Notes: generated by a model not told the origin, from the sequence alone. Shown: positions 5,641 to 38,612, numbered from the stretch's first letter. The stretch is DNA of 64,000 bases from an uncultured virus (IMG/VR IMGVR_UViG_2724679570_000003) (IMGVR_UViG_2724679570_000003); one strand, 5' to 3'. Program-made: numbers and translations.

Positions 5641-5847
5641 GTCTTTGATATTAATTAAACAACTACATAAAGTTTCAAAAGTTTTACTAAAACTTCTAGC
5701 TTCAATTAGTTAGGAGTTTTTATTTTGCATAAAATTAAGATTTAAAGGCATTTTCATAATGTCTTTTTATTTTTGCTTAATATATCTACATAAAAAATAT
5801 TATGTAAATATAATTAAAGTAAACAAAATATGAAAGGAGGAATTTTA

Positions 5848-8800
5848 ATGAGCTTAGGAATACATACTTCGTTTACTTTAGAAGATTTAGGTTCTTTAAC
5901 TACTAGAGTTGAAACTCTTTTGGGTAAAGTAGGAGAAAATAGTAAAATAAAACTAGATTTTTCAGATGGAATGTCTTTAGATAAGATGCAACAACAAATA
6001 AATAAACTACAACAAGAAATTATTAAAGCTAGTAAACAGTCTAGTCAAACATTTATAAAGACTTTTGATAATGTAAATAAACAATTTGAACAACAAATAG
6101 ATAAAATAAAAAATAATTTAAAAAACATAGGGTCAAATGTAAATGTTAATTCTATAAAAGATGATTATGGAAAGATAATAGGTGCTATGGCTCAGTATGA
6201 AGACAAGGCAGGAAATATTGTAACAAAGAATTACGAGATAGATAAATCATTTAAAAATATAGGTAACGATGGAAAGTATATTAATAAATTAAAAGCTGTG
6301 ACTGATACAAGATTACAAGATCAGGATAAAATAATTAAATCATTGGAAAAAGAAAGAAAAAAGATAGAAGAATTAACTGGTTCTATAGCTAAATTAAAGG
6401 TTAGTGAAAGCGGAAATGGTAGAATTCAAAGTGCAAAAATTAGTTATGTAGATAATGATAATAAATTAGTTGAACAGGCGTATAAAATAAAAGAAGATAT
6501 AAAAAGAAAAGAAAATGTTATAAATAAAGGTTTGTCTTTAGAAAATACAGGTTTTAATACTACTGAAAATGTACAAAAAAGTATAAAAACATTAGAACAA
6601 TATCAGAAAACCATAGATAAATTGAATGAAAAAAATATAAAACTAGGTGATGGAAGCCAAAGTCAATTGTTTATTAAAAATCTTGAACAAGCACAGACAT
6701 TAATTGATAAAACAAAATCATCTGGTGAATCTATGAGCAAAAGTATTCAAAATGAACTTAATATTTTGATTAGTAAAATGAATTTTGAAAATAAAACAAT
6801 TAAAGAAAATAACACCGAAATGAAAAAAAAAGAAAAGATAATGAAAGATGCTCCTGTGGCAATACAAGGATATGAAAATAAAATAAAAAAATTAACAGAT
6901 TCTTATGGGAAATTAATTAAAGAAGCTGATTTAAAAAAACTAAGAGAAGAAATGGCTAAATTAGCAAATTCAAAAGAACCTGAAGAATACGCTAGGCAAT
7001 TGAAGGTTATAAAAAATGAATATGATAAATTAGAGAACTCTGTAAATAGTGGTGGTAAAAAGGGGAATGGGGGTATATTAGCTTCTATTGGTGAGGCAAT
7101 GACAAAGTTTCCCATTTGGATAGGTGCTACTACTGCTTGGATGGAAGCCATACATAAGGTCAAGGAAGGTATTGGCTTTATAGCTGATTTAGATAAAGCT
7201 CAAACTAATATAAGTATGATAGCTGGTATTGGTAAAAAAGAAGTCGCAGGTTTGACTGATGAGTACAGCAAATTAGCAGGTCAATTACATACTACTACAT
7301 TAGAAATGATGGGTGAACAAAGCACTATTGCCCATGTAAAACCTCGTGAACCTAGAAATCTAGGGTGTACATTTAACGTTAAAGTATCAAATGGGAAATA
7401 ATTTGTTAATAAATGTGCTAACAGGGGAAGAGAAATCCAATCCTGTGCGAAATTATATTTATTTTTAAATATATAATCGTTAAACGACTATCGAAACCAT
7501 AGCATAAATGTAATTAGGGTTGTTTATGTAAATAAGGAAGTAGAGTGAATTAACACTATTAGTACATCCATAGCGAAACTCTATGGGTGGAAGTGCGAGG
7601 ACTTAACCTAATAAGTATGATATAGTCTATTGATTAATTTAAATAATTAATGGGTGCAGAAGAGTTCCTTAGAGCTGGTAGAAGCGTAGAAGAAACTAAA
7701 GGATTATTAAAGGCTTCTACAATTGGTGGTGCAATTTCAGGACAAGATAATAGAGCAGTTTCAGAACAATTAATTGCAATAACTAACGGTTTTAGTAATA
7801 TGACTGAACAAGCACAGAAAGATGGAAAAAGTTATGAAGAGGTAGTAATGCATGTTATAGATACTATTTCAACATTAGATAATGCTTCTGCTACTTCATT
7901 CCAAGAAGTTGCTACTGCTATGATGAGAACATCATCTTCAGCACAAATGGCAGGAGTAAGTTTTGAAACATTAGCATCTTATGTGGCTACAGTTTCAGCT
8001 ACAACAAGAAAATCTGCGGAAAGTATTGGTGAATCCTTTAAAACCATGTTCGCAAGATTTCAAGATATTAAACAAAATATTAATGTTGATGATGGTGTAA
8101 CTATATCTAACGTTGAAAAGTCGTTGGATAAAGTAGGAGTTGCACTTAGAAAAGATAAGTATCATTTCAAAGAGTTTTCTCAAATTATTGAAGAGCTTAA
8201 ACCAAAATGGAAAGAATTCAATGATTTAGAAAAAGCAGATATAGCCAAAAGTTTAGCAGGTAAAATGTGTGCCTGAGTATACAGCAATGTATATTAAGAA
8301 GCGAACCATATCGGGAAAACCCCAAACATGTAATGATGTGGGCAATTCCGAGGAAAGATTATTTATTTAAAATATAGTGTAATAAAATAAAAAAGATGGT
8401 GATGAATATAAAGTGGACAAGCGAGAAAATAGAATTATTGAAAAAATATTATCCTAACAGTAGTTGGGATTTTTTATTTGAAGTTTTACAATGTTCAAAT
8501 AAAGAAAGTATAATCCATAAGGCATATAAATTAAATATAAAAAGACAGGGTTTTTATTATACAGATAAAGATATAGATTTTTTAAAAAATAATTATGATA
8601 AAATGCCTATAGAGGAGATAGCAAAACATTTAAATAAAACTCCAGTTGCAATAATGACAAAAGCTAATAATTTAAAATTACATAAAACAGATAAATGGTC
8701 AGAAGATGAAATGAAATTATTAGAACGAGTATATGGAAAATATACTAATAAAGAGTTGTCAGAAAAGTTTTTTACTAATAGAAATGTAGAAAGCATTAGA

Positions 8801-11800
8801 ACAATGGCTAATAAAAATAATTTAAAAAAAGATAAAAAAGGAGTAAAGAAATATAATCCAGATGATATGCTTGAACAATTGCAAAACTTAGCTGATAAAT
8901 TAGGTAGAACACCAAAAATACCCGAATTAAGATTATATAACTTGCCATCTGAGTCGTCTTATAGAAGATATTTTGGTTCTTATATTAATGCATGTAAATT
9001 AGCAGATTTAGATATTAATATATGTTTATTTGGCAAAAAAAGAAAAATACCTAAATCTTTAAACGGAGATGTTTGTTTTTCAAATGCAGAAACAATAATT
9101 ACTGATTTCTTTATAAAAAATAATATTAAATATATCAAAGAACCATATTATAAAGACTATATGGATGATGAAAGATGCAAAACCAAAAGATGTGATTGGA
9201 TTATAGATAATAATGTTTTTGTTGAATATTTTGGACTCCCAGATAAATCTTATTATTATAAAAAGATGGAAATAAAAAGACAGATATGTAAAGATAATAA
9301 CATAAAATTAATTGAATTATTTGAGAAAGATTTAGATAAATTAAATACTATATTTTAAATAAATAAAATCCGTAACGACTAGTACGTTCGCCTCCTATAA
9401 AAAATATAGGATGAAGATAGAGTCTGATCGTCTATGGAAACATAGAGAGGAATGGTCGGTATGAAATAATTACCTAAAGAAGTACCATTCCCGCCATAGC
9501 AAAATAATTTGTTATGGTCAGTAACTTGTTTTTGCAAGTGAAAGTAACAGCTTGACGCACCAAAGGGAAAATTTCTTGGTATTGATGAATAACTTAGATC
9601 AAGTGAATAACCTTCAAAAAGAGGTGAATAAAGCAGCAGGAGATTCCGAAGATAAATTTAATAAAATTTATGGAAATTCGCTTGAAGCAAAAGTTAAAGA
9701 TTTTAAACATACTTGGGAAGAGTTTTATCAATCCATAATTTCTAGTGATGCTTTAAAAGTAATAGTTCAATCAGGAACTAAATTGGTTGGTGTATTAGAT
9801 GCATTAGTTAATTCAAGTGGTGGTATGAAATTAAGTTTATTAGTTTTACTGCCAACAACAATTTTATTAGCAAAAAGATTTAAAGATTTTTTTAATGTTT
9901 TAAAAGATGGTAAAAACTTATATTCGATAAGTACAGCATTTAAAACATTATTTAATATAACTGATGCAGGATTACCATCTATAAGTAAATTAAAAGGGGC
10001 ATTTTCAAATTTAGGAACAGTCTTATTAAATTTAGTGACAACGCCAACGGGATTAATATTCTTAGGTATAGCAACAGCAATAGGTGTAGCAACAGCAGCA
10101 GTAATTAAACACATAAAACATCAATCAAAAATGAGAGAAGAAAATAAAAAACTAAAACAAAGTTATGAAGATTTAACCAAGGCAATGAAAGAAAATAATA
10201 AAGAAGCTATAAAAAATGCTTCAGAAGACCCTAAAAAGGCTCAAGATGAATTACAGGGTTTAATGAAAAAAAGGGAAGAACTGAAAAAGATGATGGAAGG
10301 TTCACCCAATATGAAAGATGGAGTAAGTTTAGGAGTTGCTAATCAGTTAAAAGAAACTGAAACTCGAATTCAAGAACTAAAAAAAGCACTTAAAGATAAC
10401 AACTTTACAATTGATGAAACAACAGGAAAGATAGCTGACCTAGCAAAAGCATCATCTCATATGGCTAATTTGGACATGGCAAATGCAATAAAAGAAAATG
10501 CAGATTATGAAATTCAAGAAAAAGATGCTATTATCGGGTTATATGATGAATATAATAGATTAATTTCAATTAAAAATAAAAACAAAAGCCAAGAAATGGA
10601 ATTAAGTCATGTATCCGAATCTTTAAATGATAAAGTTAAAGGGTTGATTCTGACAAAAGATAAAGAAGGTAATGTAATAATTGAGAATACAGGTTTGCTA
10701 AATACAGAGATAGATGTTCTTAACACTGAAGGACTTACTGTTGACAAACTTACTAAAGTTAAATTAGAAGCAGCAAAGCAACATGCTCAAGCACAACGAG
10801 GAATGACTAAAATGTCTTATGAAGAGACTAGAAAAAGGATACTTTTTTTACAAGAGGAAATTGGGAAAAAGCAAAAGTTAGCAGATACTTTTAATGAGGT
10901 TCTTCCAAGTTTAAAGATTACAGGAACAAATCCTTTTCAAAAACCAGTAGATATGTTGACAAGTGAAAAGTTAGATTGGCAAAAGGAACTGGATAGATTA
11001 GATAGCATTTATAAGCAACCCACTAGTACAACAACTCCCGATGTACCAGATTTCAACCCTACAGACCCAGAAAAATTTAAAAAAAGTACAGATGCATTAA
11101 AAGAAAATACAGGTGAGACGGATAAAAATAGAGAAGCTGTAAATAAAGCTAAAGAAGCGGTAAAGCAATATGAATTAGCATTAAAATCACTAGAAATTCA
11201 AATGACTAAAAATAATATCGCATTAGGAAGATTATATGAACATAGTGATAGTTACATAAATAAATTAAAAGAAAAACAGAATCTAATTAAACAAGAAATT
11301 GCATTAAATAAGCAACAAATTGCTATGAATGGACAATTAGCTAACTCACTAGGTGCTGTAGGTGGTTCATATGTTAATGGTATGGGCAATAGTATTGGTG
11401 AACAAGTAGTAAGAAATGCACAACAGTATTTAGGAAAACCATATAAATGGGGAGGCTCTAACCCCAGTGAATCTTTTGACTGTTCTGGATTAGTTCAATA
11501 CGTATATAAACAAGTAGGAATACAATTAAATAGAACTACATATGACCAAGTTAAACAGGGAACTCCTGTTGCTAAAAATCAATTACAAGTAGGAGACGCT
11601 GTTTTCTTTGGTAGTCCATCTTCACCACACCATGTAGGAATATATATGGGAAATGGACAATATATACATGCACCAAAGTCAGGTGATGTAATTAAAGTTT
11701 CTAGTTTAAATAGTAGAAGTGATTATGCAACTGCCAGAAGATATGCAAGTGGAGGAAGCTCTGTTAGTAGAACGACTTCATCTAACTATAGTGGTAAATA

Positions 11801-14699
11801 TGCTAGTTATATAAATGAAGCAGCTAGTAAATATGGAGTTTCTGCTGCGTTAATAGCTGCAATAATAAAAGCTGAATCAGATTTTAATCCTAATGACCGT
11901 TCTGGTGCAGGGGCAATGGGTTTAATGCAGTTGATGCCTGAAACAGCTAGAGAATTAGGAGTAAATAATCCATTCGATCCACGTCAAAATATTATGGGTG
12001 GTACACAAGAAATTTCTAAATATCTGAAAAAATATAATGGTAATTTAGATTTAGCTTTAGCTGCCTATAATGCAGGTATGGGAAATGTCCAAAAATATGG
12101 AGGAGTTCCACCGTTCAAAGAAACTAAAGATTATATTCCTAAAGTTAAAAAATTCATGAAGGAATATGGTGGTAGTGAATCATCTATTCATTCAACAATA
12201 GATGAACAAATGGATTTAATTGGAAAGTCAATGGATATGGAAAAGAAAAATCTTGAACTTCAAGAAGAATTAAATAAAATAAATATTCAAATATTGGAAG
12301 CAAGATTAGGACAGTTTGATGACAAAGTTAAATCTATAGATAGAACAATAACTCAGTTAAGAACCGATGTAGATTTACAAAATAAAAATGATATTAATTA
12401 TATCAACTATTTGTCTAAAATAGATGATTATACTCTTAAAAAGTTAGATGTTCTTAAAAAAGAAAGAGATTTTATAAAAAAAGAAATAAGCTCAGGAATA
12501 TATGATGAAAAAACTATAAAAATGCTAGGTGAAAAGTATTCTGATATAGGAACAGAAATGTTAAATGTAACTAAAACTATCAAAGATGTGAGTTTAGAAT
12601 TAGTCACTGCTAAATGGGAAGCCATCCAGCAGATTTATAAAGAAAATATAGAAATGATTTCAAATGAACTAGATAGACTTAGTTTACATGAAGAAAAAAA
12701 TATCAAACAAATAATGATATTAAAGAAACAATTAGTAGAACAAGATGAAGAAAATATTAGAAGAATGACTGAACTAATAAGAGAAACTAATGATATAGCA
12801 TATAAATATGGCAAAGATTTCTTGTTAGATAAAGTTAGAGAGTATACTGCTGAATTAGATAAAGCTAATACTGAACTAGAAAAGCATAAAAAAGAGCTAG
12901 AAGATATCAAAGACAAAATGTCTGAAATGAAGTCTACTATAGAAGATAAGTTAAGAGAAATTTTAACTAAAACTGCTGAATTAGCGAAAGAACAATTAGA
13001 TAAAGTTTTAAAGCATTTTGAAGAAACTATAGATGCTGAGTTAAAGAAATTAGATGAAGCAGAAAAAAGAAATAGTTATAACGAACAAAAAACTGAGCAA
13101 TTAAAGACTATAGCAGAATTACAAGAAAAAATAGCCAAATTAGCAACAGATGACAGTGAAGAAGGTATCGCAAGAAGATTAGAGTATGAGAAACAATTAC
13201 AAGAAGAAATGAAGAAAAAGACAGATTTACAGATGAAGCATAACAATGAATTAAAGAAAGAAGCTCTAACAAAACAAAAGGAAGAAAAGAAGAAAGAAAT
13301 AGAAAAGAAAAAACGTGATATCGATACTAGATTAGATAATGTTTATTTGAATCTGGATGCAAGAAAAGCACTAACTGAAGGCTATATTGAATGGATTGAT
13401 GGTAAAAGAATAGGAATCCAAAATGCTCTATTACAATTTGAAGATTTATTTGGGAAAGGCTTAACTTCATTAGGAGATAAAATAAAGAAAGAATTATTAG
13501 AACAATTAAAAGCAGCCCAAGACTTAGTAAATGGAATAGAGAAACAAGACCCTGATAAAATACTTGAAGAAAATAAAACTAAAAATGTATACGGTACAGG
13601 GGCAGATTTAGCCAATTCTCGAAAGATATTAGGTTCTTTAGGATATAACTATATTGACACAAGTTTAGTAGACAAAACTAAGTTGCATTTCGGAAAAGAT
13701 GATATAGTTGTAGGTGATACTGGTGCTATCAACGGTGTTGATAGACAAGATTTAAATGGAGCAATAAGACTAGGTGGGAAAAACAGATATGATACCGCAG
13801 GGATTATACAATTATATTCAGACATTCAAAGTGGAAGAATTAAGCCTGTTGGCGGAATTGTATATGGTACGGGACAAGATTTAAAAAATGCTATAGCATG
13901 GCTGAGTCCTCTAGGATATGAATTTGTAGATACATCTAAAATAAATCCTAAAGATATTAATTTTAATCCAAATGATATTATTGTAGGTGGCAAAGGAGCT
14001 AAAGGTGGAGTAGACTTTGATATTGATGGCGTCACTAGATTAGGTGGTTCTGATAGAAATGATACATATAATAAAATAAGAGACAAAGCACTAATTGATT
14101 TAAATGCTATGAATAAAGCTAATTATGTGCCTAAATCTAAGTATGGAAAAGTATATGGAACTGGTTATGATTTAAAATCAGCTAAGAAATATCTTACTAA
14201 ATTAGGTTATCAGTTTGTAGATACCAATTCTGTTAGAGATGTTGAATTAACAGCGAATGACATTGTTGTTGGTGGCACTATGGATGGTAAGGAGCAAATT
14301 TATAATAGTCAAGCGAGATGGTTATTTGGTAAAGATAGATATCAGACTGAGAGTGAGATAGCTAATTATGCAAATACCATGAGCGATATTAAAGGTTATT
14401 ATGATAAAGGTGGAGTTGCAGATTTTACAGGAAAAGCTATGCTTCATGGGAATCCTAATGCAGTAGAGACTATATTTAACGCAGAACAAGGTAAGAAATT
14501 ATATAATTTTGTTAATACCTTACCTATAAATAATTTTGGGTATGGAATGAATAGAAATCTACAACCCGCAATGGCAACTAGTAACAATAATAATATTGAA
14601 ATAAATTTTCATATTGATAAAATGTATGGAACAGAAAATGAAGCTCAAGGTTTTGCTACTAAAATAATAAATACTCTTAGAAATAGAGGAAAGTATTAA
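5848..14699 (+). CDS. tape measure protein with NlpC/P60, lytic transglycosylase and three C-terminal repeats; exons 5848-7314, 7653-8261, 9555-14699 (about 2406 aa)
   Basis: AAGGAGG RBS; TP901-type TMP core joined in frame across introns (MMG|GAEEFLRAG; LAG|THQRENF); FDCSG..HVG..IHA; AES..GAMGLMQLMP..AYNAG. Confidence 0.9.
7315..7652 (+). ncRNA. group I intron 1 (ORF-less, 338 nt)
   Basis: P1 atgggt/gcccat with U-G at the splice site, P10 gcact/ggtgc, P3 cctcgt/gcgagg, P7 gacta/tagtc, terminal G; removal restores frame. Confidence 0.9.
8262..9554 (+). ncRNA. group I intron 2 with homing endonuclease ORF (1293 nt)
   Basis: P1 caggt/gcctg, P10 tgtgt/acgca, P/Q tatcgggaa..ttccgagg, R cgtaacgacta, S gatagagtc, terminal G; removal restores frame. 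Confidence 0.9.
8402..9358 (+). CDS. intron-encoded putative homing endonuclease (W-x-x-E repeats, associated helical repeat, PD-(D/E)xK-like C-terminus)
   Basis: KWTSEKIELLK / KWSEDEMKLLE repeats, LGRTP..PS..Y.RYFGS, S..E...CDW..VFVEYFG; lies inside intron 2. Confidence 0.75.
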   Translation: MNIKWTSEKIELLKKYYPNSSWDFLFEVLQCSNKESIIHKAYKLNIKRQGFYYTDKDIDFLKNNYDKMPIEEIAKHLNKTPVAIMTKANNLKLHKTDKWSEDEMKLLERVYGKYTNKELSEKFFTNRNVESIRTMANKNNLKKDKKGVKKYNPDDMLEQLQNLADKLGRTPKIPELRLYNLPSESSYRRYFGSYINACKLADLDINICLFGKKRKIPKSLNGDVCFSNAETIITDFFIKNNIKYIKEPYYKDYMDDERCKTKRCDWIIDNNVFVEYFGLPDKSYYYKKMEIKRQICKDNNIKLIELFEKDLDKLNTIF

Positions 14700-14749: not shown

Positions 14750-17700
14750 TTGATAAAGAGCAGTTTATATTTCAATTATGCAGGTAGAGATAGTTTAGAA
14801 TTTAATATTATAAATGGTTCTGTAGATAATGCAGAATTAAAAGAAAATTTTTTAGCTAATAAGAAAATAAAAGAAATAAATACTATAGAGGCTGATAAGC
14901 CTTATTTTCAAGGAATAGAAAGAAATCCATTACAACTTAAATTACAATTTTGTTTCACAGAAAAATGGAATAAAGAATTAATAAGGGAAGTGGAAAGATG
15001 GTTGGATCAAGATGAATATCAACCATTATATTTTTCTGAAGACCCTGAAAAGATTTATTATGCTATACCCGTTGATGATATAGAAATGACTCATTTTGGA
15101 TTAGAGCAAGGGTATTTAGATATAACTATGAGATGTAATACTTATCATGCGTATAGTAGGGAATATTTAAGTGAAACTTATGATTTAAGTGCAGATAATG
15201 AAAATGGTACAGAAATAATAATACCCAATTATGGAGATATTGATATTAAACCTGATATATGGATTAAGAAAATAGGTGATGGTAGTTTAGAAATAATAAA
15301 TAAAAATAATGGTGGAGAAGTTACAAGTTTTTGTAATGGCTCTAGTGGTAAGGGTATACTAAAATTCACAGGAACAGTATTTGATAGCGAAATCGTAACG
15401 ATAGGTGATAAGATATTTGAATTCGATACAGGTGATGGAATTGTAAATGAAAATGTTAAACAATGGACGCAAGGATTTAAATATATAGATGGAACAATAG
15501 TTAATAAAAGTGGGATTTTATACCAATGTATTAAGACAAATACTGATGAAGAATGGGATGAGAATCACTGGAAAAAGCTAGAGAAAAGCAATATAAAAGT
15601 AGATGTAAGTGCAGATGCTAACCCTGCACAAGCGAAATTAGTTTTTAATAACACACCCATTGAAGATAGTGATAATATTTCCATTGGTAATAACACCTAT
15701 GAATTCGATTTTGATGATGTCTATGAAGCTAAAAACGGTCATATTCCAATTAGTTTAAAAAACTATACAACGCAAGCAAATGGAAGATTAATAGCTAGAA
15801 GTAATTTAGATTTTGCAGGAAGTAAAATTAAAGTAGGAGATCAGGAATATGAAATAACAGCCTCATCAAATGAAGGAATTGCAATTACCAAGAATACTGG
15901 ATTGAAAGGTTGGAATAATTGGAGATTGGATTCTTATTTTGAATCCGATTCTGATTTTAAAGATGCAACCTTATTAATAAATGAAAAAAGAGACAACACA
16001 CTTGATGGAGTAAGGATACCTTTAGTAAGTGATTTCGTTAATAATAGAATAGATAAAGAAAAGCAGATTATTGAGCTGTTCAAATTAACAAAATTTTTAG
16101 GAATCCCTGCTGAAAGATATGCTGATACAGGAAAGTTCCAACCTGTTTCTGAAGGTATTAAAGGACAGGATATAGGTGATGAGTTGAGTGTTTATAAAAG
16201 AACTGGAAGAAGCTTTAAAGTAGATATGATAAATTCTACATCTAATAAATTTTATATTAACAAAATGTTTCAAAGAAATGGTGTAACTACTAAAAACATG
16301 GAAGCAAAAATAGGAGCAACTAATTAGTTGTTAAAAATATACTCAAATATAAATAAATATAGACAAAAGTATATTTTTAAAACAAAAGCTCCCTACATTC
16401 GTAAAGAGTGTAGAGTGATGATTTTAAATCATCCAAAACTCCTTTAATTGCTGGAAGTCCCTAAAGCTACATTAACCACAACGTAAGAATGAAATAAGTC
16501 TAAGCGTGAAGGTGATGAAAGTAGAAAAAATAATGTAGATAGCATAAGGTCAAATCCTAAGTGCCTTAATAATGGGTAATCAGCAGGTAAGCCTCGAATA
16601 GAGGAAACTTCAACGACTAGAGAGAAATCTCGTACCTTCAAGTGAGGGGAAATGGGGAGAACCTTAAATAATTAGGGTTGTGATATAGTCTGTGCGTCAT
16701 ATGAAAGTATGAGAAGTTCATAAGAGAACTGCATAAGAGTAACGATCTTATGTGAACACTCTAAAAATATATACAAATGTCAATTAGATAATTCGTAAAA
16801 CAACCGTATTTTAAAATTTTATAATTATTTATTTTCTAAATCTTTAATAATTAATTTATAAACATAATTACTAACAGAACGTTGTTCTTTACTAGCTTTT
16901 AATTTTAATTGTTCATTCATTTCCTTAGGAATAGTAATTTTAATTCTTGTATTATTTTTACTAATAGCCATAATGCCACACCTCAAAAATACATTTATTA
17001 AATTAAGAATATCATAAATCAAAGGTGTTGACAAGGTGGGGACACTATGATAATATATAAATATGGTAAATAAGTGAGGTGATTAATAATGGGTACTATC
17101 ATTAAAACAGTAAAACAATATTCCTATGAATTAGATGATGATATATTACAAGAATTAAAGTTTATAGCTAATCAATATAAGAATGTAAAGAATTATATCT
17201 ATTCAAGATACAGTGGAATTAATAGTATTCCATTATTAAAGAAACATAGAGAAATAAGAAATGAATGGACTAAAAATAAATTTTATGAACAATGGAAATT
17301 ACCAGCTAGGTATTGGAAATTAGCATTAACTGAAGCTATAAGTAATATAAAGTCAGAATGGAGTAATATTAAAAGAAGAGTAAAAGAACAATGTAAAGAA
17401 AACAATAATTTATCAAATGAAGATAAATATTATATTAATTATATTCTTAAATTTGATAATTATTATTGGAAAGTGTTAACGAATCAATCTTTTGAAATTC
17501 CTAAAACATTTCAAGATAAAGAATTGAATTATAAATATCTTAATAGTCTTATTAAAAGATATACAAGAAGATATAAAGGATGTATACCATATTCTAAAAT
17601 AAGCAATAGTTTTTCAATTGATAAAGGATTATATTCTTACAAAGATGGTTATATAAAGATTGCTTGTATCGAAAAATATAAAAGATTATCTATTAAATTA

Positions 17701-20240
17701 ACTGACAACAATAAGTATGATAAAACAATGACAGTTAAAATAATAAATAATAAAATAGTTATAAATTGTCCTTTAAAAATAAAAACTAGAAAGAATAAAA
17801 ATACTAATATTATAGGAATAGATAAAGGTTATAGATATTTATTTGCAGTATCAAGCGAAAATTTTTATGGAGAAAATCTTAATAATTATCTTAGCAAGGA
17901 AACTGAAAGATTAAATAAAGTTAATGCTCAAAGAAATAGATTTTGGGCTTTATATAATCAATATTTAGAGCAAGATAATATTAAGAAAGCTAATGCCATA
18001 AAAGAAAATAATTTAGGTAAAGTAAAATATAATCACAATAAGCAAAAACATGACCAAACAGTTAAGTCTTATATAAATTATTCATTGAATCAATTAATAA
18101 AAGAAGAAAAACCAAAAGAAATAGTTATGGAACAATTAGATTTTATTAATTGGAATGACAGATATCCTAAAGGTGTAAAACGTAAATTATCAAGATGGAT
18201 TAAGGGTTATATAAGAGAAAGATCAGAGTATAAATGTGATTTTTATAGTATTAAATATACTTATATAAATCCAGCTTATACAAGTAAAGTATGTAGTGTT
18301 TGTGGAAGTTTTGGTAAAAGAGATGGAGATGTATTTACTTGTCCTAAATGCGGAGAAACCCACGCTGATACTAATGCAAGTAAGAATATATTGAATAGAA
18401 AATATGATAATGACATTATTTTATATACAAATTATAAAAAAGTTAAAGAAATATTAGAAAATAGAGTAAAAGTAAGTTAAATTTAAATTGATATAAAAGA
18501 ATATTTAATCACAAATATATGTACCTCACAAATGAAGCATATATTTTATCAGAAATGAGGGTTAAATAATTCTTTAGTTATAAAATTTTAAAATACGGTT
18601 GTAGGATAATAAATGAATTTTAATTAAGTAATATATTAATTAAAATGATTTTATGAACTGGTATATCCAAGACTTTAAGCCATCATAAGGTGTGATAAGT
18701 GCGAATTATCTAAATTTGAGTACATTTGTATACATTTTTAGAACCAGATATAATTTTAATTGCTAAATGGCAAGAAAATAGAAAAAATGATTCTTTTGTG
18801 GAGTATGAAGGTAAGGAGTATATACAATCTGACTTTGAACTATTAAGAATAAAAAATGTAGGTGAAACTAAAAACAATAGTTTAATTTTAACTCATGAAA
18901 GTGGAACTTATTGGTATGAATTAGAAACTCCTAGTAAAATATTTAAAACTAATCCTTTATATTCTTATGGTGAAGGAAAAAGAGTTGTAGGAAGTGGATA
19001 TGATTTAGCAAATGCAAAAATTGTTTTAAATGGATTAGGTTTTTCTTTTGTAGATTCAAAGGGTTTATCGGAAGAAAATTTAAGAAAAATTGTTAGAAAT
19101 GGAGATATTATTTTAGGTGAGAAAGGTGCTAAAGGCGGAATTCCATTTGATATTGATGGAGCAATAAGATTAGGTGGAAGTGATAGATATGAAACTGCAA
19201 AATTGGTAAGAGATTATTATTGGGAAATCCATGATAAATATTATGCTAAAGGATATGATTATTATTATAATGTTATTTTATTTACAAAGCAAGGAGAAAA
19301 ATTATTGATTCAGGAGGATATTCCTTTAACAAGACCTTACCAGATTAGAATGGGAAGTAGTCTAGATGAAACATGTGAAAACATAGTAAAAGCTATAAAT
19401 GAAGAAGGTAGAGATTGGGTTGAGTATAGTAAAGGTACATATGAACATGATGATGTAAGAGCTGAATATGATAAAAGTTCAAAGATTATAAATATAAAAG
19501 CAAAAGAAAGAGGTAGTAAAGGAAATAAAATATCTTCAGTAGTAAATGATTGGGAAAACACTCAAAAATTATTAAGACAAAATTATAAAATAAACCAATT
19601 TGAATTTCCCAATTTGGTGAAAGGTAAGGATGCTATTTATAGTGAGCTAGATGACACAAATGGAAAATCATTAATAGCATATATAACAGATGTGTTAAAG
19701 ACAAATGAAGATAAAATGAATATTAGCTTTTCCAATAATACTATAAATATAATTTCTAAAAAATATGGAAGTATTAACAATATAATTCCTGTACTGTCTA
19801 ATTGCTATTCTTGTAATTTTTATGATATTAAAGACAATCCTGCTGTAACTTTAGAAGGGGGAAAAGATCCAAGTGTAAATACTATTTTACAAGCTTTATA
19901 TTCTACTATAGACAATGTATTTTGTAAGATGGATTTAGAGAATCAAACAATTACAGTGACTCATAAAGAAGTAGGTAAAAAAACTAATATTAATATAAGT
20001 ACAACTGCTATAAACGCTTACTGGGATAATGGTAAGAAATTATATGGCGGTAGAGATGGACTAGTTAATGATGAAGAAATATACATAGAAGGTGAGAGTG
20101 GATATATTGAAAGTAATAAAAACAAAGGAATTGTAGATGTATATAATGGTAATGATTTAGTTTTAAAATATGGTGAGAATAGACTATTAATTAAAGGAAA
20201 TTGTTTTATAAGATTTAAAACTAAGTATAAATTCTTGTAA
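14750..20240 (+). CDS. distal tail (Dit-like) protein with large internal insertion; exons 14750-16313 and 18748-20240 (about 1018 aa)
   Basis: Follows TMP; Dit-type N-terminus (YQPLYFSEDPEKIYYA) and C-terminus (YGENRLLIKGNC); joining G16313 to A18748 gives MEAKI-D-IILIAKW in frame. Confidence 0.8.
16825..16971 (-). CDS. Arc/RHH-like DNA-binding protein inside IStron
   Basis: TRIKITIPKEM..LK..A..EQRSVSNYV; GAGG RBS. Confidence 0.8.
   Translation of the reverse strand: MAISKNNTRIKITIPKEMNEQLKLKASKEQRSVSNYVYKLIIKDLENK
17028..17056 (+). promoter_or_regulatory. tnpB promoter
   Basis: TTGACA-17-TAATAT with extended TG. Confidence 0.65.
17089..18480 (+). CDS. tnpB: TnpB RNA-guided nuclease
   Basis: GIDKG, VMEQL, CSVC..CPKC, HADTNAS: RuvC D-E-D intact. 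Confidence 0.9.
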   Translation: MGTIIKTVKQYSYELDDDILQELKFIANQYKNVKNYIYSRYSGINSIPLLKKHREIRNEWTKNKFYEQWKLPARYWKLALTEAISNIKSEWSNIKRRVKEQCKENNNLSNEDKYYINYILKFDNYYWKVLTNQSFEIPKTFQDKELNYKYLNSLIKRYTRRYKGCIPYSKISNSFSIDKGLYSYKDGYIKIACIEKYKRLSIKLTDNNKYDKTMTVKIINNKIVINCPLKIKTRKNKNTNIIGIDKGYRYLFAVSSENFYGENLNNYLSKETERLNKVNAQRNRFWALYNQYLEQDNIKKANAIKENNLGKVKYNHNKQKHDQTVKSYINYSLNQLIKEEKPKEIVMEQLDFINWNDRYPKGVKRKLSRWIKGYIRERSEYKCDFYSIKYTYINPAYTSKVCSVCGSFGKRDGDVFTCPKCGETHADTNASKNILNRKYDNDIILYTNYKKVKEILENRVKVS

Positions 20241-20272: not shown

Positions 20273-22972
20273 TTGCCTGAAAATCAATTTGAAAGATATG
20301 GAATAGACAAACACTTAAGACCACCTAGAATAAAAATGACTTTATATAAAAATAAAAATGAAGCTATAGGTAGGATTAAAGATTTTTACGATGTTTCCAA
20401 TAAAATCACTCTAGGTAACACAAATGAATTAAGTTTCTCTATTCCTTTTAAAATAGAGAAAAAAAACAAAATGATAAAAAATACAATGTGGGATATTTTA
20501 AAATATAGATATTTGATATTGTTTGAATATAATAATCTCAAAGAATGGTATACAATATCTAATTTAACTAAAGATAGTGCAAATAAATCCAAGCAAGTTC
20601 AAGTAAGGTCTTTACAATACTTATTGAGAGGAACAAAATTATATAATTATGAGGCTGTTTCTTATACAATTCAAGAAGTATTAAATGGTAATCAATTAGA
20701 TAATAAGAGAGGAATATTATACAATACTACATGGTCATTGGGACATATAGATGAAACTTTAAAAACTAAAAAGCGTGGTATTACTATGAGTGGGGAAACT
20801 TCTGTACTCGATGCTATTTACACTTTAGCAGAAAAATTTAATGCTATTTTAGTATGGGATACAGAAAATGAAATTGTAAGTTTTTATGATGAAGAAACTT
20901 ACGGTGAAGATAATGGATTGTTAATACAATATAATAAGTATTTAGAGAGCATCAAAGAAGAAGAGAATCCAGATGAAATATGTACTATATTAAAAGTACA
21001 AGGTAAAGATAACACTGAAATATCTTCCATAAACCCTACAGGAAAGACTTATCTAACTAATTACAGTTTCTTTATGTATCCTTTTGAGGTTGATAAAGAT
21101 AATAATATAATTAAACATTCAAATTACATGTCAGACAACTTGTGTCTGGCTTTATTAAATTTTGATAAAAAAATAAATGAAAATAAAGGTAAATTGCAAG
21201 AATTAATTACTAAGAAATATGTCTATGATAATGCTATTTCACAAAAAGAAATGCAATTAACAGATTTACATGGTGAATATGATGCTATATTAAAGAAATT
21301 AGCAATAGCTCAATCTACTAATAGTCAAAAGGAAACCATTTTGGATGAAAAAGCGAAGAAGTTTGAGCAGATTCAACAAAGAGAAAAAGATATTAAATTT
21401 GTTAAACAACAAAGACAAGTAATAGAAACTCAAATAGATAGCATTAAATTTATTTTATCAGAAAATAATAATTTTACACCTTCTGAGATTGAAGAATTAA
21501 AAAATTTTAGAGAAGAAAAAACATATGTAAATAATAACATAACAGATGACAAAGAGTTATTTTTATCAGCAAATGAATATTTTCAAAAACTTATACGCCC
21601 TAAAAGAGTTATTACTTTGAGTATGATTGATTTTCTAAGAGTTGTAGAAGCTCAACGAGATTGGAACAAATTAAGAGTTGGTGATGTGATAACTATAAAT
21701 TATTATAAGTTTGGTATAGATAAGATGAAAGCAAAAATTGTTGAACTTGATATAACTCATGAAAATATGATGGTCAATATCACCATTGCCAATGTTAATG
21801 ATGTTGATGATGATGAGAAAAGGCTTTCTAAATTACTTTATAATACAAGTTCAACCTCTGCAATAATAGATGAAACTCCTTCCAAATTAAATACTTTAAA
21901 AGATACTGTAAATAATTTAGATGAAATAATTAATAATACATGGAAAACTGCACAAAGACAAATATTTGCTGGAACAAACAATACAACTATAGTTAACCAA
22001 CTGGGATTAACTTCTATGGAATCTGAAAATAAGAAGCGTGGATTAAGAATTAACAATGGTGCATTAATGTGTACATCAGAAGGAGAGAATCTTTTTAAAA
22101 CTATCATTAATGGTGATGGAATAATAGATATAGGAAATATACAAGGTAAAATAGATAAAGATACAGATATAAAGGTGGATATAGATAATATAGAAACAAG
22201 TGATGGAGAAAAAATAAGTGACTTAATAGACGATAAGGTAAATGGATTGGAAACTGAAATAGATAAGGCAGTTGAAGATTTAACAAATCGTGCAAATCAA
22301 CAAATAGAAAGAGCAGATGAATTAGCGGATTATATAGATGGGTTAACAGGTGAAATAGGAGTTTTTAAAGTTGAAACTGAAAAAGCATTGGCTACTAAGG
22401 TAGCTGATACAGAATTTAAATCTTATAGAATGCAGACAGCTGAAGATATTGCTGATAAAGTATCAAATTATAAGTTTGATTCATGGAGAACTCAATCTGC
22501 ACAAATGATAGCTGATAAAGTATCTAGTAATGCATTTGATAGCTATAGAACCCAAACAGATAGAGAAATTATGGATAGAGTAAAAGGTAGCGAGTTTAAT
22601 TCTTATATATACCAAACAGATAGAAAAATTTCTATGGTTGTAGATGACTATGGAAACATTAATGCTGCACAAATAGCAATGGGACTTGAAAAAGATTCTA
22701 GTTTTATAAGAATGATTGCAGACAAAATTGAAATTAAGCCAACAAGTGGCGTAATTGAGTTTCCTAATGGAACTGATATAGATTCTAGAGACTATGGGGA
22801 TGGAAGAAATATAATACGATTAAGAAGTAATTATAACAACTATATCTCAGTAAGTAGTAATGGGGTAGCCCTCTTTAATGGAAGTAGTGGAGCAAATGGT
22901 AGACCTTTTATGCAATTTGATGAAGATGCAGTTTATGTTCATGGAAAGAAAGTTAAATGGACTTATGCTTAA
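20273..22972 (+). CDS. tail spike / prophage tail endopeptidase-like protein
   Basis: Position after Dit; INPTGKTYLTNYSFF motif; ADKVS..FDSYRTQT repeats. Confidence 0.75.
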   Translation: MPENQFERYGIDKHLRPPRIKMTLYKNKNEAIGRIKDFYDVSNKITLGNTNELSFSIPFKIEKKNKMIKNTMWDILKYRYLILFEYNNLKEWYTISNLTKDSANKSKQVQVRSLQYLLRGTKLYNYEAVSYTIQEVLNGNQLDNKRGILYNTTWSLGHIDETLKTKKRGITMSGETSVLDAIYTLAEKFNAILVWDTENEIVSFYDEETYGEDNGLLIQYNKYLESIKEEENPDEICTILKVQGKDNTEISSINPTGKTYLTNYSFFMYPFEVDKDNNIIKHSNYMSDNLCLALLNFDKKINENKGKLQELITKKYVYDNAISQKEMQLTDLHGEYDAILKKLAIAQSTNSQKETILDEKAKKFEQIQQREKDIKFVKQQRQVIETQIDSIKFILSENNNFTPSEIEELKNFREEKTYVNNNITDDKELFLSANEYFQKLIRPKRVITLSMIDFLRVVEAQRDWNKLRVGDVITINYYKFGIDKMKAKIVELDITHENMMVNITIANVNDVDDDEKRLSKLLYNTSSTSAIIDETPSKLNTLKDTVNNLDEIINNTWKTAQRQIFAGTNNTTIVNQLGLTSMESENKKRGLRINNGALMCTSEGENLFKTIINGDGIIDIGNIQGKIDKDTDIKVDIDNIETSDGEKISDLIDDKVNGLETEIDKAVEDLTNRANQQIERADELADYIDGLTGEIGVFKVETEKALATKVADTEFKSYRMQTAEDIADKVSNYKFDSWRTQSAQMIADKVSSNAFDSYRTQTDREIMDRVKGSEFNSYIYQTDRKISMVVDDYGNINAAQIAMGLEKDSSFIRMIADKIEIKPTSGVIEFPNGTDIDSRDYGDGRNIIRLRSNYNNYISVSSNGVALFNGSSGANGRPFMQFDEDAVYVHGKKVKWTYA

Positions 22973-23005
22973 AATAATTTTTTAAAGGGAGTGAAATTTA
23001 AAAAT

Positions 23006-23254
23006 ATGGCTAATTTAAAAACAGAAAATGGATTTGAAAAAAGTACAAATTTAGTTATTTTAGAAATTAAAGATAAAATAATAAAAACATTAGATGAAGC
23101 AAATTTACCAATGACAGTGCATCAAATGATTATAAATGAAATAAAAGATTCAATAGATAGGGCAACAAGAATTCAAGTTGAAAAGGATAGAATTGAATAT
23201 GAAGATCATGTAAATTTTGTAGAAAAAAATAAAACTAAGGAGTGTGAAAAATAG
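23006..23254 (+). CDS. hypothetical tail-region protein
   Basis: ORF track, RBS. Confidence 0.6.
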   Translation: MANLKTENGFEKSTNLVILEIKDKIIKTLDEANLPMTVHQMIINEIKDSIDRATRIQVEKDRIEYEDHVNFVEKNKTKECEK

Positions 23255-23257
23255 AAT

Positions 23258-23491
23258 ATGGAATTAGATAAGATAATAAAATTTAATGATAAAATTATAA
23301 TTGAAGATAAAATGGTCATGGGGATTTATGGTGATTTTAATATTACAACAGGACATTGTAGTTTGTTCTGTAATCCTTTAGATACAACTACAATAAAAAA
23401 TAATAAAGAAGAAGTTCAAAAACAAATAGAAAAATTTAAAACTAAATTAAGAGATAACATGACAAGTGAAGGATTTTTATATACCATATAA
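23258..23491 (+). CDS. hypothetical tail-region protein
   Basis: ORF track. Confidence 0.6.
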   Translation: MELDKIIKFNDKIIIEDKMVMGIYGDFNITTGHCSLFCNPLDTTTIKNNKEEVQKQIEKFKTKLRDNMTSEGFLYTI

Positions 23492-23520
23492 TAAAATAAT
23501 TTTAAAAGTGAGGTGAGAAT

Positions 23521-26500
23521 ATGAGTACGTTTAGCGATACTTCACCAATTTTAATAAAAAAAAGAAAAGGTGATTCTACAGACCCTTTTAAGCCTATAAT
23601 TGAGAATTTAAAAATAATAAATAATGTAGCTATATTAGATGAGATTCCTAATAAGTTTAGAAGAGTAAATGTTGAAGGATTAGTAGAAAAAAGAACAGAT
23701 TTCTATAATGAAAACAATAATATAGATGAAAATGAATACATAGTTGACTATAAATATGGCTATGTATTTTTTAATGAAAAAATGAACAATAAAACTGTTG
23801 AAGCTGAATATTTAGGTACAGGAGTTGTTTTATATCCTTCATCAAGGATTTATGATACTGGACGGGAAGATATAATTATTACTATCCAAGAAATGATAAA
23901 TGGTGGAAGAGAAGCTATAGAAGCATATGCAAGTATAGATAATGCTATAAAAACCGCTGAAGAGTATTATGCAAAAATATCTACTTGTGTTGATGGAATA
24001 AAGGAAATAAGTGACACTTTAAATATATCAATTGTAAATGCTAAAAACATAGATGATATATTAAATAAAACTATAGAAGAAGCAAGAAAAATAAATGATA
24101 CTCTAGGTGGAACTATCATAAATGGGACTAATAAAATAACTGAGATAGATAATATAATACAAGAATTATCTGTCTGTGAGGAATATAGTTCTGAAAAGGA
24201 GTATAAAAAGCTTAATAGAGTTTCTTTTAAAGGAAGTTCTTATGAGTGTATTAAAGATTGTAAAGATATACTACCTAGTAATAAAGAATATTGGAATTGC
24301 GTAGCTGAAAAAGGTAAAGATGGTAAAGACGGTGAAGGTTCGGGAAATATGCATACAGAGAAGTATGATAAAAACAATGATGGTATAGTAGATATTGCAG
24401 AGGTAGCTAATAGAATAGAATGGAATAATATACAAAATAAGCCTGATTTATCACAAGTGGGTAAGGTGAAGTCAGTAAATACTCAAACAGGAGATGTGCT
24501 TATATCTGCAATAGATATCAAAACAATTGATGGCATGACTGTAGAGAAAAACATAAGTAATATTCGAGAAAAGGTTGAGTCTAATTTAAATAAAATTGGA
24601 AATTTATCTACTCTTGAAAAAGAAATTATAGATAATCTAACAAATGAAAATAAGGAATTAAACTTAACAAATGCAATTAATTATCTATATAAAAATGGAG
24701 GAAATGGTGAAAGTGGAAATAATGATAATGATGGTTCTATAAAATTAGGTAGGATTGAAAATTTAACTGCCATTTCTGATATAGAAGGAACTAAAGCAAA
24801 TTTATCTTGGCAAAATCCAACTATAACAGAATTTGAAAAAGTAGAAATATATGTTAGTACACAAGATTTAACAAGTGCCAATTATGATTATTGTACTAAA
24901 AATGCTACTAAAATAGTAGATAGTAAAATAGAAACTTTCGAATATAAAGCTAAAAATAATACTACCTATTATTTTAAAGCTTTTGCTATTTATAATGTCT
25001 TTGGAGCAATGCAAAACTCAGATGGAGTTATTACTAGTGTTAAAGTTTTAGATACTAAACCACCTGCAACTGTAACAAATATAAAAGCTACTACAGGAAA
25101 TGGAGAAATAACTTTAACATGGATAAATCCTAAAGATACTGACTTTGAAAAAATAAAAATTGTAAGAAAAGAAAACAGCAAGCCTACAGACATAAAAGAC
25201 GGAATAGTAGTGTATGGGGGTAATAATATTACATATAAAGATACGACTGTAGTTAATGACGTTACCTATTATTATAGATTCTTTACTTATGATACAAATA
25301 ATAATGTAAATGATACGGATATTCAAATTATAAATGTTACTCCTATAGCAAATGGATATGATAAACCTATTAGTGATTTTACTGCAAAAGGTGGTGATGG
25401 AGAAGTAACTTTATCATGGATTTATCCATCAGATGCAAATTTTAGTACAGTAAAAATAATAAGAAAAGAAAATGGATATCCTACTGGAATAAATGATGGT
25501 GATTTTGTTTGTGAAAGTTTTTATGCTTCTTCGTCAGAATACTCTAATGAGAATATGATAGGTAGTGACATAGATGAAAATTTAACTAATGGCGTTAAAT
25601 ATTATTATCGTGCTTTCACATTCAATAAGAATAATCAATATTGTGATATTGAAGAAGGTCAACAAGTTACTGCAACACCCCAAGCATTTAAAGAATATGG
25701 TGTAAGATGGACAAAATCTACAGATATAGTAGAAAGATTAGGAGATGCTGTTGGTTTAACCGCCATAACAGGTGGTAAAAATGATTTTAATAATTTAATT
25801 CCTTGGTGTAGTATGAGAAGATGTAATCTATCAGATGACGGGATAGTTAATGCTTATTATGGAAATCCTATGTATAAAATTGATGGTAGTAATGGGCAAT
25901 GCATGGTAGAGATACCCAAATTTTGGTTTAAAATATATTATGTTAGCAATGATATCATAGAATTTTGGATATGTGATGGAGCTAAGGATGGATATGAAGT
26001 ACATCCAGCTTTCTTTAGAGATAGAAAACATTTATGTGATGATAATAGTGGAATTGCTGAAGAGGTAGATTATAGGTATCATCATACTTACTTGCCTAGT
26101 TTGAATAATGATAATTTAGAAAGTAAAAGCAGTGTTTTACCTAAAACATATTTTTTTATGAGTACAGCTAGAGATTATACTAAAAAAAGAGGAAATGGAT
26201 GGGGATTAGTAGATTTTAATTTAAGATATGCACTACAGTTATTGTATTTAATTGAATATGCAGATTTTAATTCTCAAAAGACTATTGGGTCAGGAGCTAA
26301 GTGTGAAGGTATTAATGATAGTTATACTCCATGTAAAACAGGGGGAACTAATTTATTAGGTAATATTACTGGTTGTATAAACAATGGTCAGATTTCTTAT
26401 AGAGGAATTGAAGACTTCTTTGGCAATTGTTATCAAATGATAGATGGCTTTTATATAACTGATACTTTAGAAATATTAATTAATAACAAAGGATTTCAAA

Positions 26501-36589: not shown

Positions 36590-36648
36590 TTTGTTATTAA
36601 TAATAATAAAACAATTTGACAATTAAGTTTTACAAGGAGGCATATAAT

Positions 36649-37665
36649 ATGACTAAAGTTAAAAGAATTAAATATTTCACCAAAGAAAAATTAGATTTGA
36701 TTAGCAAAAGTAACTGGGATAAATATGAAAAATATTTAAAAAGTAATATAATCAAAAATAAAGATGTTAAAAATACTACATATAAGGTGTATAAGAATTA
36801 TATGCAACATTTTTTAGTCTATTTAGCGGAAGAATGGGATAATGTTGATCTATATAATGAAGATTTTATGGAAAATGCAATAGACATAATGGAAGGTTTT
36901 ATATTGTTCTGTCAAGATACATTAAAAAACAATAAGAAAGTAATAAATACAAAAATATCTGCGGTTTCTAGTTTTTATTTATGGAGTATGAGAAGAAGAC
37001 ACATAGAATTTCATCCATTTGATAAAAGATTAGAAAGAATGAAAGGAGCAAGAGAAGAAAAAATTATAAATGCTTATTTTTTAACAGAAGAACAAATAAA
37101 ACAAATCAATGAAGGATTAATAGAAAATAAAGGCAACAAATTTGATTTGCTAGACTTAGTGTTATGGAATGTAGCTTTAGATAGTGCTAATAGAATTGGA
37201 GCATTGAATAGGCTAACCTTATCTCAACTAGATTTGGATAATTGTTGCTTTAAAGATATTCGTGAAAAGGAAGGGTATATAGTAGATGTAAGTTTCAATG
37301 AAAATACAAAAGAACTAATCTTAAAATGGTTAGAACATAGAAAAGAACATATGGATAATCTTGAAATAGATGCTCTGTTTATATCAAGATATGATGGAAA
37401 ATACAATAAAATGACTAAAGGAACTCTACAAAGAAGAATAAAAAAGATTGGAACTATAATAGGACTAGATGATTTTCACGCACACTGTATTCGTAAAACA
37501 AAAAGTAATAGTTTGTTAGATACTGGAATAGACCCTAGCTTAGTTAGTCGATATCTCAATCATAAAGATATTTCAACAACTTTGTCATTTTATCAAAAGC
37601 CGAAATCTTCTACAGAAATTAGGGATGAGATTAAAAATCAAATTAAAAATTTATCAAGTAAATAA
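36649..37665 (+). CDS. tyrosine recombinase (XerC/D-like)
   Basis: Catalytic R (ANRIG), K, HxxR (HCIR), H (LNH), Y (SFY); AAGGAG RBS. Confidence 0.9.
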   Translation: MTKVKRIKYFTKEKLDLISKSNWDKYEKYLKSNIIKNKDVKNTTYKVYKNYMQHFLVYLAEEWDNVDLYNEDFMENAIDIMEGFILFCQDTLKNNKKVINTKISAVSSFYLWSMRRRHIEFHPFDKRLERMKGAREEKIINAYFLTEEQIKQINEGLIENKGNKFDLLDLVLWNVALDSANRIGALNRLTLSQLDLDNCCFKDIREKEGYIVDVSFNENTKELILKWLEHRKEHMDNLEIDALFISRYDGKYNKMTKGTLQRRIKKIGTIIGLDDFHAHCIRKTKSNSLLDTGIDPSLVSRYLNHKDISTTLSFYQKPKSSTEIRDEIKNQIKNLSSK

Positions 37666-38419: not shown

Positions 38420-38612
38420 CCGTTGCATAAAACTTATAAAAAATTATAAATATATAAATTCTACATATGTCATTCGTTCCCAAATAACTTTCCTATTCAT
38501 AGAGTTCTATTTTGAATAATTACTTATTCTACTCTAGTTGGTATAACTCTCCAAGGACTTAAATTCCCGTACAACGCACGGTACATATAACATAATTTTT
38601 CATAATCACCAA
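38420..38612 (-). ncRNA. IS607-type right end / omegaRNA
   Basis: gtaccgtgcgttgtacgggaatttaag...ttttatGCAACGG terminus. Confidence 0.7.

Follow-up and report, generated by a model that had tools for sequence, protein, structure and literature searches.

A large Clostridium phage with a probable TnpA-less group B IStron in its distal-tail gene

The sequence considered here is a stretch of 64,000 nucleotides, one strand, from an uncultured virus (IMG/VR IMGVR_UViG_2724679570_000003); the whole stretch is referred to as the window, and positions are counted from its first letter. The tail module of the window is ordered as a tape-measure gene (9552-14699; 1715 amino acids, aa, with SLT and NlpC/P60 domains), the gene for the distal tail protein Dit, and a Prophage_tail-type gene (20273-22972). 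The reading frame of Dit is broken: the open reading frame (ORF) 14750-16327 stops at 16327, the frame resumes in that of ORF 18726-20240, and the two parts are separated by structured non-coding sequence, a short ORF on the minus strand, and an ORF of 463 aa at 17089-18480. The N-terminus of ORF 14750-16327 matches DUF6558/Sipho_tail, and its assignment to phrog_33/202 ('distal tail protein Dit', E about 1e-13) upholds the placement, in an original prediction made from the sequence, of a mobile element in the distal-tail gene. IStrons are mobile elements in which a group I intron is fused to an element of IS200/IS605 or IS607 type. We regard 16317-18747, with a probability of roughly 0.8, as an IStron of group B (IS607 lineage) that belongs to the CsISt1 family and lacks TnpA; it sits behind GGAG on the sense strand of Dit, in a Clostridium phage of ~197 kb.

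The insert and its exact ends

The ends were read from alleles that lack the insert. The nearest virus record, G001 (197 kb, holding 58% of the sampled words of the window), matches both flanks and has no insert. Junctions were read directly in four IMG/VR contigs, L024-L027 (L024 being the same record as G001), each with a full-length match, and all four IStron-free relatives carry Dit as a single unbroken ORF of 1021 aa. With a slash marking the junction, the empty allele of L025 and L026 reads gcaaaaataGGAG/atataattttaattact, or, in shorter form, ...AAAATAGGAG/ATATAATTTT...; that of L024 and L027 reads gcaaaaattGGGG/atattatattaattact. In the window, gcaaaaatagGAG is followed by the insert (CAAC...ACCAG) and then by atataattttaattgct. 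The insert is therefore 16317-18747 (+), 2431 bp. AG is found at both junctions, as had been proposed, and this repeat makes 16315-18745 an equivalent reading. A second, independent case is given by the copy L010 (Clostridium sp. FAM 1755), for which two empty alleles exist in its genus (L062 and L063), with the junction ggtggagaaGGAG/aaggaatgaaag, beginning aaggaatg after the junction. The insertion and its exact ends are real.

GAG at 16314-16316 was assigned to the target and not to the element because it is present in the empty alleles L025 and L026, and likewise in L062 and L063. The left end of the original prediction, 16314, is thus three bases off and becomes 16317, and its splice junction aaaatag/atataatt should read aaaataggag/atataatt. 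The conserved GAGCAAC was first adopted as the element start here too, and was overturned by the same four empty alleles. The predicted right end, 18747, is exact; GAACCAG closes all 13 loci with a right end. Excision of 2431 nt yields a product of 1021 aa, the length of Dit in the four relatives, so that the claim of a restored frame stands, whereas the 2434-nt excision first proposed yields 1020 aa. The 1021-aa ORF is scarless in the empty alleles, and at the DNA level the element ends fit the predicted splice sites without a target-site duplication. For the copy L016 an empty allele was sought in 30 genomes of its genus; two matched, both occupied.

With these ends, Dit exon 1 is 14750-16316 (+), comprising 522 codons and the first of the three bases of the codon at the junction, as delimited by the ORF list, DUF6558/Sipho_tail and phrog_33/202, and Dit exon 2 is 18748-20240 (+), delimited by the reading frame and 96-97% identical in nucleotides to the uninterrupted relatives. 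Exon 1 ends in the target-derived flank motif GGAG (16313-16316, +), the candidate target-adjacent motif (TAM) and 5'-exon strand of the intron helix P1, with the 5' splice site after G16316. The first positions of exon 2 (18748-18767, +; atataattttaattgcta...), directly 3' of the conserved right end and matching the empty alleles, are the predicted guide and target. The corrected junction and TAM matter, as assays on the earlier versions would have used wrong ones.

The whole element is carried by all 14 genome loci compared, and of 386 genomes scored in a sample at family level 18 have it, with 1-4 matches each (15 further genomes could not be scored). Twenty independent left flanks were assembled from the window, 13 genome loci and 6 further loci; all 20, from Clostridia, end in GGAG, a motif that replaces the TAM ending in ATAG first proposed, and the base before it is A 13 times, T 6 times and G once. 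All right ends observed have the sequence ...TTTTAGAACCAG, or TTTTGGAACCAG in the case of L021, and what lies beyond them is unrelated. Eighteen of the 20 insertions lie in sense-strand ORFs in the phase GGA G/nn, the other two (L042, L052) being ambiguous. As background, in-phase GGAG makes up 79% of the motif in sense ORFs for the window ORFs and 68% for the bacterial flanks, and antisense GGAG makes up 16-33% of all GGAG sites; the bias in sense and phase is real but explicable largely by codon usage and selection.

Intron RNA, right end and encoded proteins

The predicted group I core was recovered with Rfam: in a 541-nt slice, RF00028 (Intron_gpI) matches 16389-16713 with 62.8 bits (E 1.2e-15; gathering score 50; model positions 1-253). 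Rfam searches of the whole window and of a 2.9-kb slice gave no group I match; these blanks are taken to be filter artefacts. The homologous intron of phage D-1873, annotated as a group I intron and 80% identical to the window core, scores 61.9 bits by the same model. The catalytic core (P2-P9) occupies 16389-16713 (+), with compensatory changes in P2 among copies.

Directly 5' of P2 lies GCUCC (16388-16392, +), the candidate internal guide sequence (IGS), which would pair with G16313-C16317 and place the pair G16316-C16389 at the splice site. The predicted P1 has five pairs, formed by the exon GGAG and the first intron base C16317 with GCUCC; AGCTCCCT, around GCUCC, is invariant in 18/18 elements, and GCUCC is complementary to the GGAG(C) of 20/20 flanks, which argues for the IStron as delimited here. 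That the 5' exon ends in G, as the original prediction had it, matches what is described for group B (IS607-type) IStrons (Tourasse 2014, PMC4227781), in which the junction G is reported to pair with C and the boundary to have been confirmed in vivo (PMC13565253). Peripheral hairpins fill the P1 loop at 16318-16380 (+), one at 16318-16329 and one in which 16331-16343 pairs with 16368-16380 as a perfect 13-nt inverted repeat; the stretch is dispensable, as it is deleted in copy L022. Copies L012, L013 and L018 have an extra insertion of ~125 nt in the intron periphery at about window position 16723. A second intron was looked for at 22900-23600 and none was found.

An AU-rich stem encloses the ORF region. 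Its 5' arms, inverted repeats within 16760-16827 (+), are 16760-16780, 16784-16795 and 16800-16827, pairing with 18722-18742, 18702-18713 and 18575-18602, respectively. The pairs are kept across 18 elements, with several two-sided changes and about 55 G-U against about 19 A-C cells by hand count; this pattern points to selection on the plus-strand RNA. An 'IR stem enclosing the ORF region' is among the features given for group B IStrons (Tourasse 2014).

The right end, 18496-18747 (+), was delimited by alignment and a consensus fold of 13 copies, with G18747 as terminal base, and is a candidate both for the omegaRNA scaffold and for the 3' portion of the intron. Stems with covariation were found at 18496-18575 and 18681-18692, and the 3' arms of the enclosing stem at 18575-18602 and 18702-18742. 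In the consensus fold 96.8% of cells are paired, and 13 two-sided pair changes were counted against 7.7+-1.6 in shuffles (0/500 reaching the count) and at most 5 in slid controls. The covarying stems lie outside the part needed for splicing. Two alternative local pairings, 18597-18606 with 18736-18745 and 18699-18706 with 18724-18731, share bases with the long stem; the layout is as would be expected if the right end could fold either as the intron 3' part or as the omegaRNA scaffold, a dual fold that has been demonstrated for CboIStron (Zedaveinyte 2023, section 8). The right end of the window element has no match in Rfam.

Among RNA libraries, there is a contig from a relative (85-90% alike) in which 16315-16793 is followed immediately by 18721-18745. 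This contig (runs X19/X20, 'organism E') has 511 nt and a depth of 374 and holds the intron and the last ~25 nt of the right end. It shows that there are derivatives lacking the ORFs and the bulk of the right end, which fits the published statement that a right end of about 18-20 nt is enough for splicing (PMC13521648). Other contigs of runs X19/X20, of 1.2 kb, span the 3' half of tnpB and stop at 18747.

The predicted TnpB with an intact D-E-D is confirmed. The gene tnpB (17089-18480, +; 463 aa) encodes RuvC residues D245, E348 and D427 and a Zn finger of C402, C405, C418 and C421, all seven invariant in 33/33 aligned homologues down to 48% identity. The protein matches NF040570 over nearly its full length (114.5 bits; cut-off 100) and, in Pfam, the TNB domain PF07282 only; it has no match to the NCBIfam models IS607_TnpB and IS200_TnpB. 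Its closest solved relatives are Cas12f proteins, with E348 and D427 aligning to the acidic residues of RuvC II and III, which we take to be catalytic residues of AsCas12f. Homologues number 289 at E<=0.001, many of them of 460-470 aa from Clostridium, including C. botulinum, C. senegalense and C. rectalis; a tblastn search of plasmids gave only relatives of at most 35% identity among the 25 listed of 118 matching records. The gene is intact in 10 of 13 loci and broken in 3. Insertions of ~80 nt follow the tnpB stop in L014 and L016, and one of ~310 nt breaks tnpB in L018.

The IS607 label of the original prediction has indirect support. The literature places CsISt1 and CseIStron-1 in IS607, and a distant relative, L068, adds to this: its TnpB is 31% identical to that of the window over the full length, and the start of its gene is overlapped by a 219-aa protein with MerR-HTH and resolvase domains, which by its domains is an IS607-type TnpA. 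Because the L068 TnpB sits directly behind such a TnpA, the label gains some support, but the window element has no TnpA of its own.

The divergent gene for a ribbon-helix-helix (RHH) protein is likewise present as predicted: an Arc-like gene at 16825-16971 (-), 48 aa, most likely the true coding sequence, matches PF07878 (RHH_5; E 8.8e-8) and the Arc-like repressor family phrog_582 (E 3e-5). It is intact in 2 of 18 elements, those of the window and of L015, which encode an identical 48-aa protein; 13 carry decayed remnants, those of chromosomal copies being frameshifted or truncated, and 3 carry none. The contig of L015 is also listed as viral (L066), and the two elements are 89% identical in DNA. 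Divergent promoter-like sites lie between RHH and tnpB (17006-17056, both strands), with TTGACA-17-TAATAT and an extended TG on the plus strand, the best such site of the region, and TTGTCA-17-TATTCT on the minus strand; the Arc-like protein probably represses them.

Proposed splicing and RNA-guided cutting, and rival explanations

In the mechanism proposed for the TnpA-less IStron, the 5' 440 nt of the element would fold, within the tail-gene transcript, as a group I ribozyme, with P1 forming between exon GGAG plus C16317 and GCUCC. The long AU-rich stem (16760-16827 with 18575-18742) would loop out RHH and tnpB and bring G18747 to the core, and splicing would join ...AAAATAGGAG to ATATAATT..., thereby restoring Dit; in unspliced RNA translation would stop at TAG 16325-16327. 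Restoration of Dit by splicing is considered likely. A second transcript, begun at the promoter-like site inside the element (17028-17056), would yield TnpB, and the omegaRNA would run from 18496 into exon 2, its local fold excluding the long stem of the intron. The TnpB-omegaRNA complex would then cut GGAG followed by atataattttaattgc in IStron-free alleles, and repair would copy the element in (intron homing).

The alleles bear on this second part as follows. If the omegaRNA continues past 18747, the predicted guide is atataattttaattgc...; the sequence just 3' of the element equals exon 2, as originally proposed. L025 and L026 have GGAG followed by a match at 16 of 17 guide positions, the sole mismatch being at position 15. 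In the occupied allele CCAG, not GGAG, precedes the guide sequence, for which reason it would be spared; the pair CCAG and GGAG here parallels TCGG and TGGG in CboIStron. RNA-guided cutting of empty alleles is plausible, with the odds somewhat against it.

A number of results weigh against parts of this interpretation. The canonical U-G wobble is absent from the 5' splice site, where G-C stands at -1 and C-G at +1. The pairing 18597-18606/18736-18745 never varies, so that covariation neither supports nor contradicts it, and the same holds for 18699-18706/18724-18731. The promoter-like sites in the RHH-tnpB region are not enriched (19 against 22.4 in shuffled sequence) and serve as a lead only. 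The nearest relative, G001/L024, and L027 have GGGG in place of GGAG and mismatches at guide positions 5, 8 and 15. The element is TnpA-less, as had been predicted: none of the 18 full elements, which at 2.0-2.9 kb have no room for ORF A, contains a transposase, and none was detected among window ORFs of at least 110 aa or in G001, a search that did not extend to TnpA remnants at the DNA level. Matches to the resolvase domain number 1, 6 and 3 in the host genomes G002, G003 and G005, only 3 of the 10 being in open frames (218-261 aa), and no resolvase-domain gene was found in G001. Public sequencing runs share at most 22% of the sampled words of the window and none contains the locus; two RNA runs have only contigs of relatives, with no join across the element, and these contigs are uninformative on splicing or RNA ends. 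Lastly, CseIStron-1, probably of the same family and the likely closest relative studied, is described as splicing ~80% in vivo at its predicted ends with omegaRNA reads largely absent (Zedaveinyte 2023, section 8), and as lacking detectable DNA cleavage (PMC13521648); these data raise the odds of splicing here and lower those of nuclease activity.

The same published data speak for an element that splices while its TnpB, or the RNA of the latter, no longer cuts DNA, the frame being kept for another reason, such as splicing-tuning RNA binding or recent arrival. Broken tnpB in 3 of 13 loci, the existence of ORF-less derivatives and the absence of any TnpA to generate empty sites point the same way. 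The catalytic triad and Zn finger are nevertheless invariant down to 48% identity, the right-end stems covary although dispensable for splicing, and TnpB is reported to stay intact after loss of TnpA in IStrons (PMC13565253). Such loss of cutting has a chance not far short of even. Spread at the RNA level, by reverse splicing into transcripts behind GGAG, with the IGS GCUCC selecting the site, and then by reverse transcription and recombination, instead of by a serine transposase acting in trans, would account for the absence of TnpA from every copy, for GGAG as the complement of the IGS, for the 18 of 20 sites in sense ORFs and for the low copy number (1-4 per genome). It is nonetheless improbable: selection alone can purge copies that lie antisense or outside genes, 68-79% of the GGAG motifs in sense ORFs are in this phase anyway, the AG common to target and right end fits the core dinucleotide of a serine recombinase, and the distant relative L068 has an IS607 TnpA.

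Hardly any weight is left for the ends, junction and TAM of the original prediction (16314-18747; aaaatag/atataatt; ATAG). GAGCAAC is indeed conserved at the start of every copy, and excision of 2434 nt also restores the frame; GAG is, however, present in the empty alleles L025/L026 and, for copy L010, L062/L063, the product has 1020 aa against 1021 aa in 4/4 relatives, and a 5' splice site placed behind 16313 is not within the P1 helix formed with GCUCC.

Going further with the TnpA-less IStron and its guide, the element might act as an RNA-guided device for homing and competition, although we hold this to be unlikely. An RHH-controlled internal promoter would drive TnpB and an omegaRNA, which together would cut GGAG + atataattttaatt... 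in Dit of co-infecting IStron-free relatives of the L025/L026 type; repair would copy the IStron together with neighbouring tail-gene markers; genomes of the G001 type (GGGG and three mismatches) would escape; and the RHH gene would be intact only in the two phage-borne copies because expression of the nuclease has to be timed during infection.

The type of element, its unusual 5' splice site after G, the existence of copies without TnpA and the idea of TnpB-driven homing are already in print (Tourasse 2014; Zedaveinyte 2023; PMC13565253), the last as 'awaiting experimental validation' for TnpA-less IStrons in a 2026 review (PMC13565253). The modest additions made here are a natural series of occupied and empty alleles in an essential tail gene of closely related large Clostridium phages, a setting where homing between co-infecting genomes could be examined; a defined flank motif for the CsISt1-type family, GGAG in 20/20 sites, matching its internal guide sequence; and the survival of the Arc-like gene only in phage-borne copies.

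Surrounding genes and comparison with known systems

The tape-measure region upstream is in pieces at 5830-9552 (+), with ORFs at 5830-7401, 7650-8276 (PhageMin_Tail) and 8396-9358 (HNH_repeat, homing-endonuclease-associated), followed by that at 9552-14699. A group I match, weak and partial (20.5 bits, E 0.005), covers 7421-7490, and GATATAGTC, a core motif of group I introns, stands at 7619; one or two more introns are probably present in the tail module. The same core motif occurs once more, as its reverse complement, at 1283 (-). G001 has a free-standing group I core, L003 (G001:C1:133134-133466), 76% identical to window 16433-16757 and without the P1 and ends of the IStron; no counterpart of L003 was found in window 7000-9600. 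A tyrosine integrase is encoded at 36616-37665 (+), and gyrase A and B, guanylate kinase, thymidine kinase, 5'-nucleotidase and nucleoside deoxyribosyltransferase at 41152-62900 (-); this gene content is in keeping with a temperate or plasmid-like Clostridium phage of large size (about 197 kb).

A second TnpB gene, within the region 38489-39749 (-), encodes a canonical protein of 378 aa with HTH_OrfB_IS605, OrfB_IS605 and TNB domains, which shares 70% identity with the IStron TnpB of phage D-1873. The region is not taken to be an IStron because only 134 nt lie upstream of the gene. RAGATH-18 is matched (Rfam, 65.7 bits) at 38489-38557, directly downstream of this TnpB, and the stretch after D-1873 tnpB is similar; RAGATH-18 may be part of the omegaRNA of the lineage of the second TnpB and D-1873.

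The closest published description is that of CsISt1 from C. sporogenes ATCC 15579, of 2369 bp, with an IA2 intron and 'ORF B only' of 1392 nt, assigned to IS607/group B, with an AG site in front of it and CAG as its last bases (Tourasse 2014, PMC4227781). By that description the window element resembles it in the 5' group I intron, the TnpB-only ORF of 1392 nt, the AG target, the CAG end and the AU-rich enclosing stem, the sizes being 2369 bp for CsISt1, 2431 bp for the window and 2364 bp for L010. Unlike CsISt1, the window element lies in a phage structural gene and has an intact Arc-like RHH gene; the target of CsISt1 is given in the published text as 'an AG site', against GGAG in all 20 flanks here. 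CseIStron-1 of C. senegalense ATCC 25772 is described with 2364 bp, a full-length TnpB, no TnpA, and an intron (Zedaveinyte 2023, bioRxiv 10.1101/2023.11.20.567912); it equals the element of L010 in length and is chromosomal, whereas the window copy is phage-borne. A 463-aa TnpB of C. senegalense (P0010) is 80% identical to the window TnpB and 90% to that of L010. From lengths, ORFs and TnpB identity, the window element, L010, CsISt1 and CseIStron-1 are probably one family. Group B at large is marked by targets with a final GG or AG and 3' ends of CGG or CAG (Tourasse 2014); in line with this, the ends GGAG/...CCAG/ are found in the window and all copies, as is the AU-rich enclosing stem; the serine-recombinase TnpA (ORF A) of the group is lacking.

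CboIStron, or CbISt3-4, an IS607 IStron of the C. botulinum phages c-st and D-1873, is phage-borne like the window IStron and has the same order of intron, RHH and tnpB. The intron core of the D-1873 element is 80% identical to that of the window and its opposite-strand Arc-like ORF 44% identical, whereas its TnpB (376 aa) belongs to another lineage, with 33% identity over the C-terminal 119 residues only; the same chassis therefore carries TnpBs of two lineages. In the CboIStron type as in the window element, target and right end both finish in G and have a dinucleotide in common, the TAM and end being TGGG and UCGG in the former and GGAG and CCAG in the latter; the right end of the D-1873 element resembles RAGATH-18, and that of the window element has no Rfam match. 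A comparison of the IGS with that of the D-1873 IStron was dropped, as a 7-nt repeat, GGTTACT, makes the ends of the D-1873 element ambiguous.

Phage group I introns with homing endonuclease genes (PMC11620839) offer a further parallel, as described there: a self-splicing intron in an essential phage gene, with a nuclease directed against the intron-less allele. Unlike in those introns, the nuclease of the window element would be RNA-guided (TnpB), its target being set by the flanking exon and not by protein-DNA recognition.

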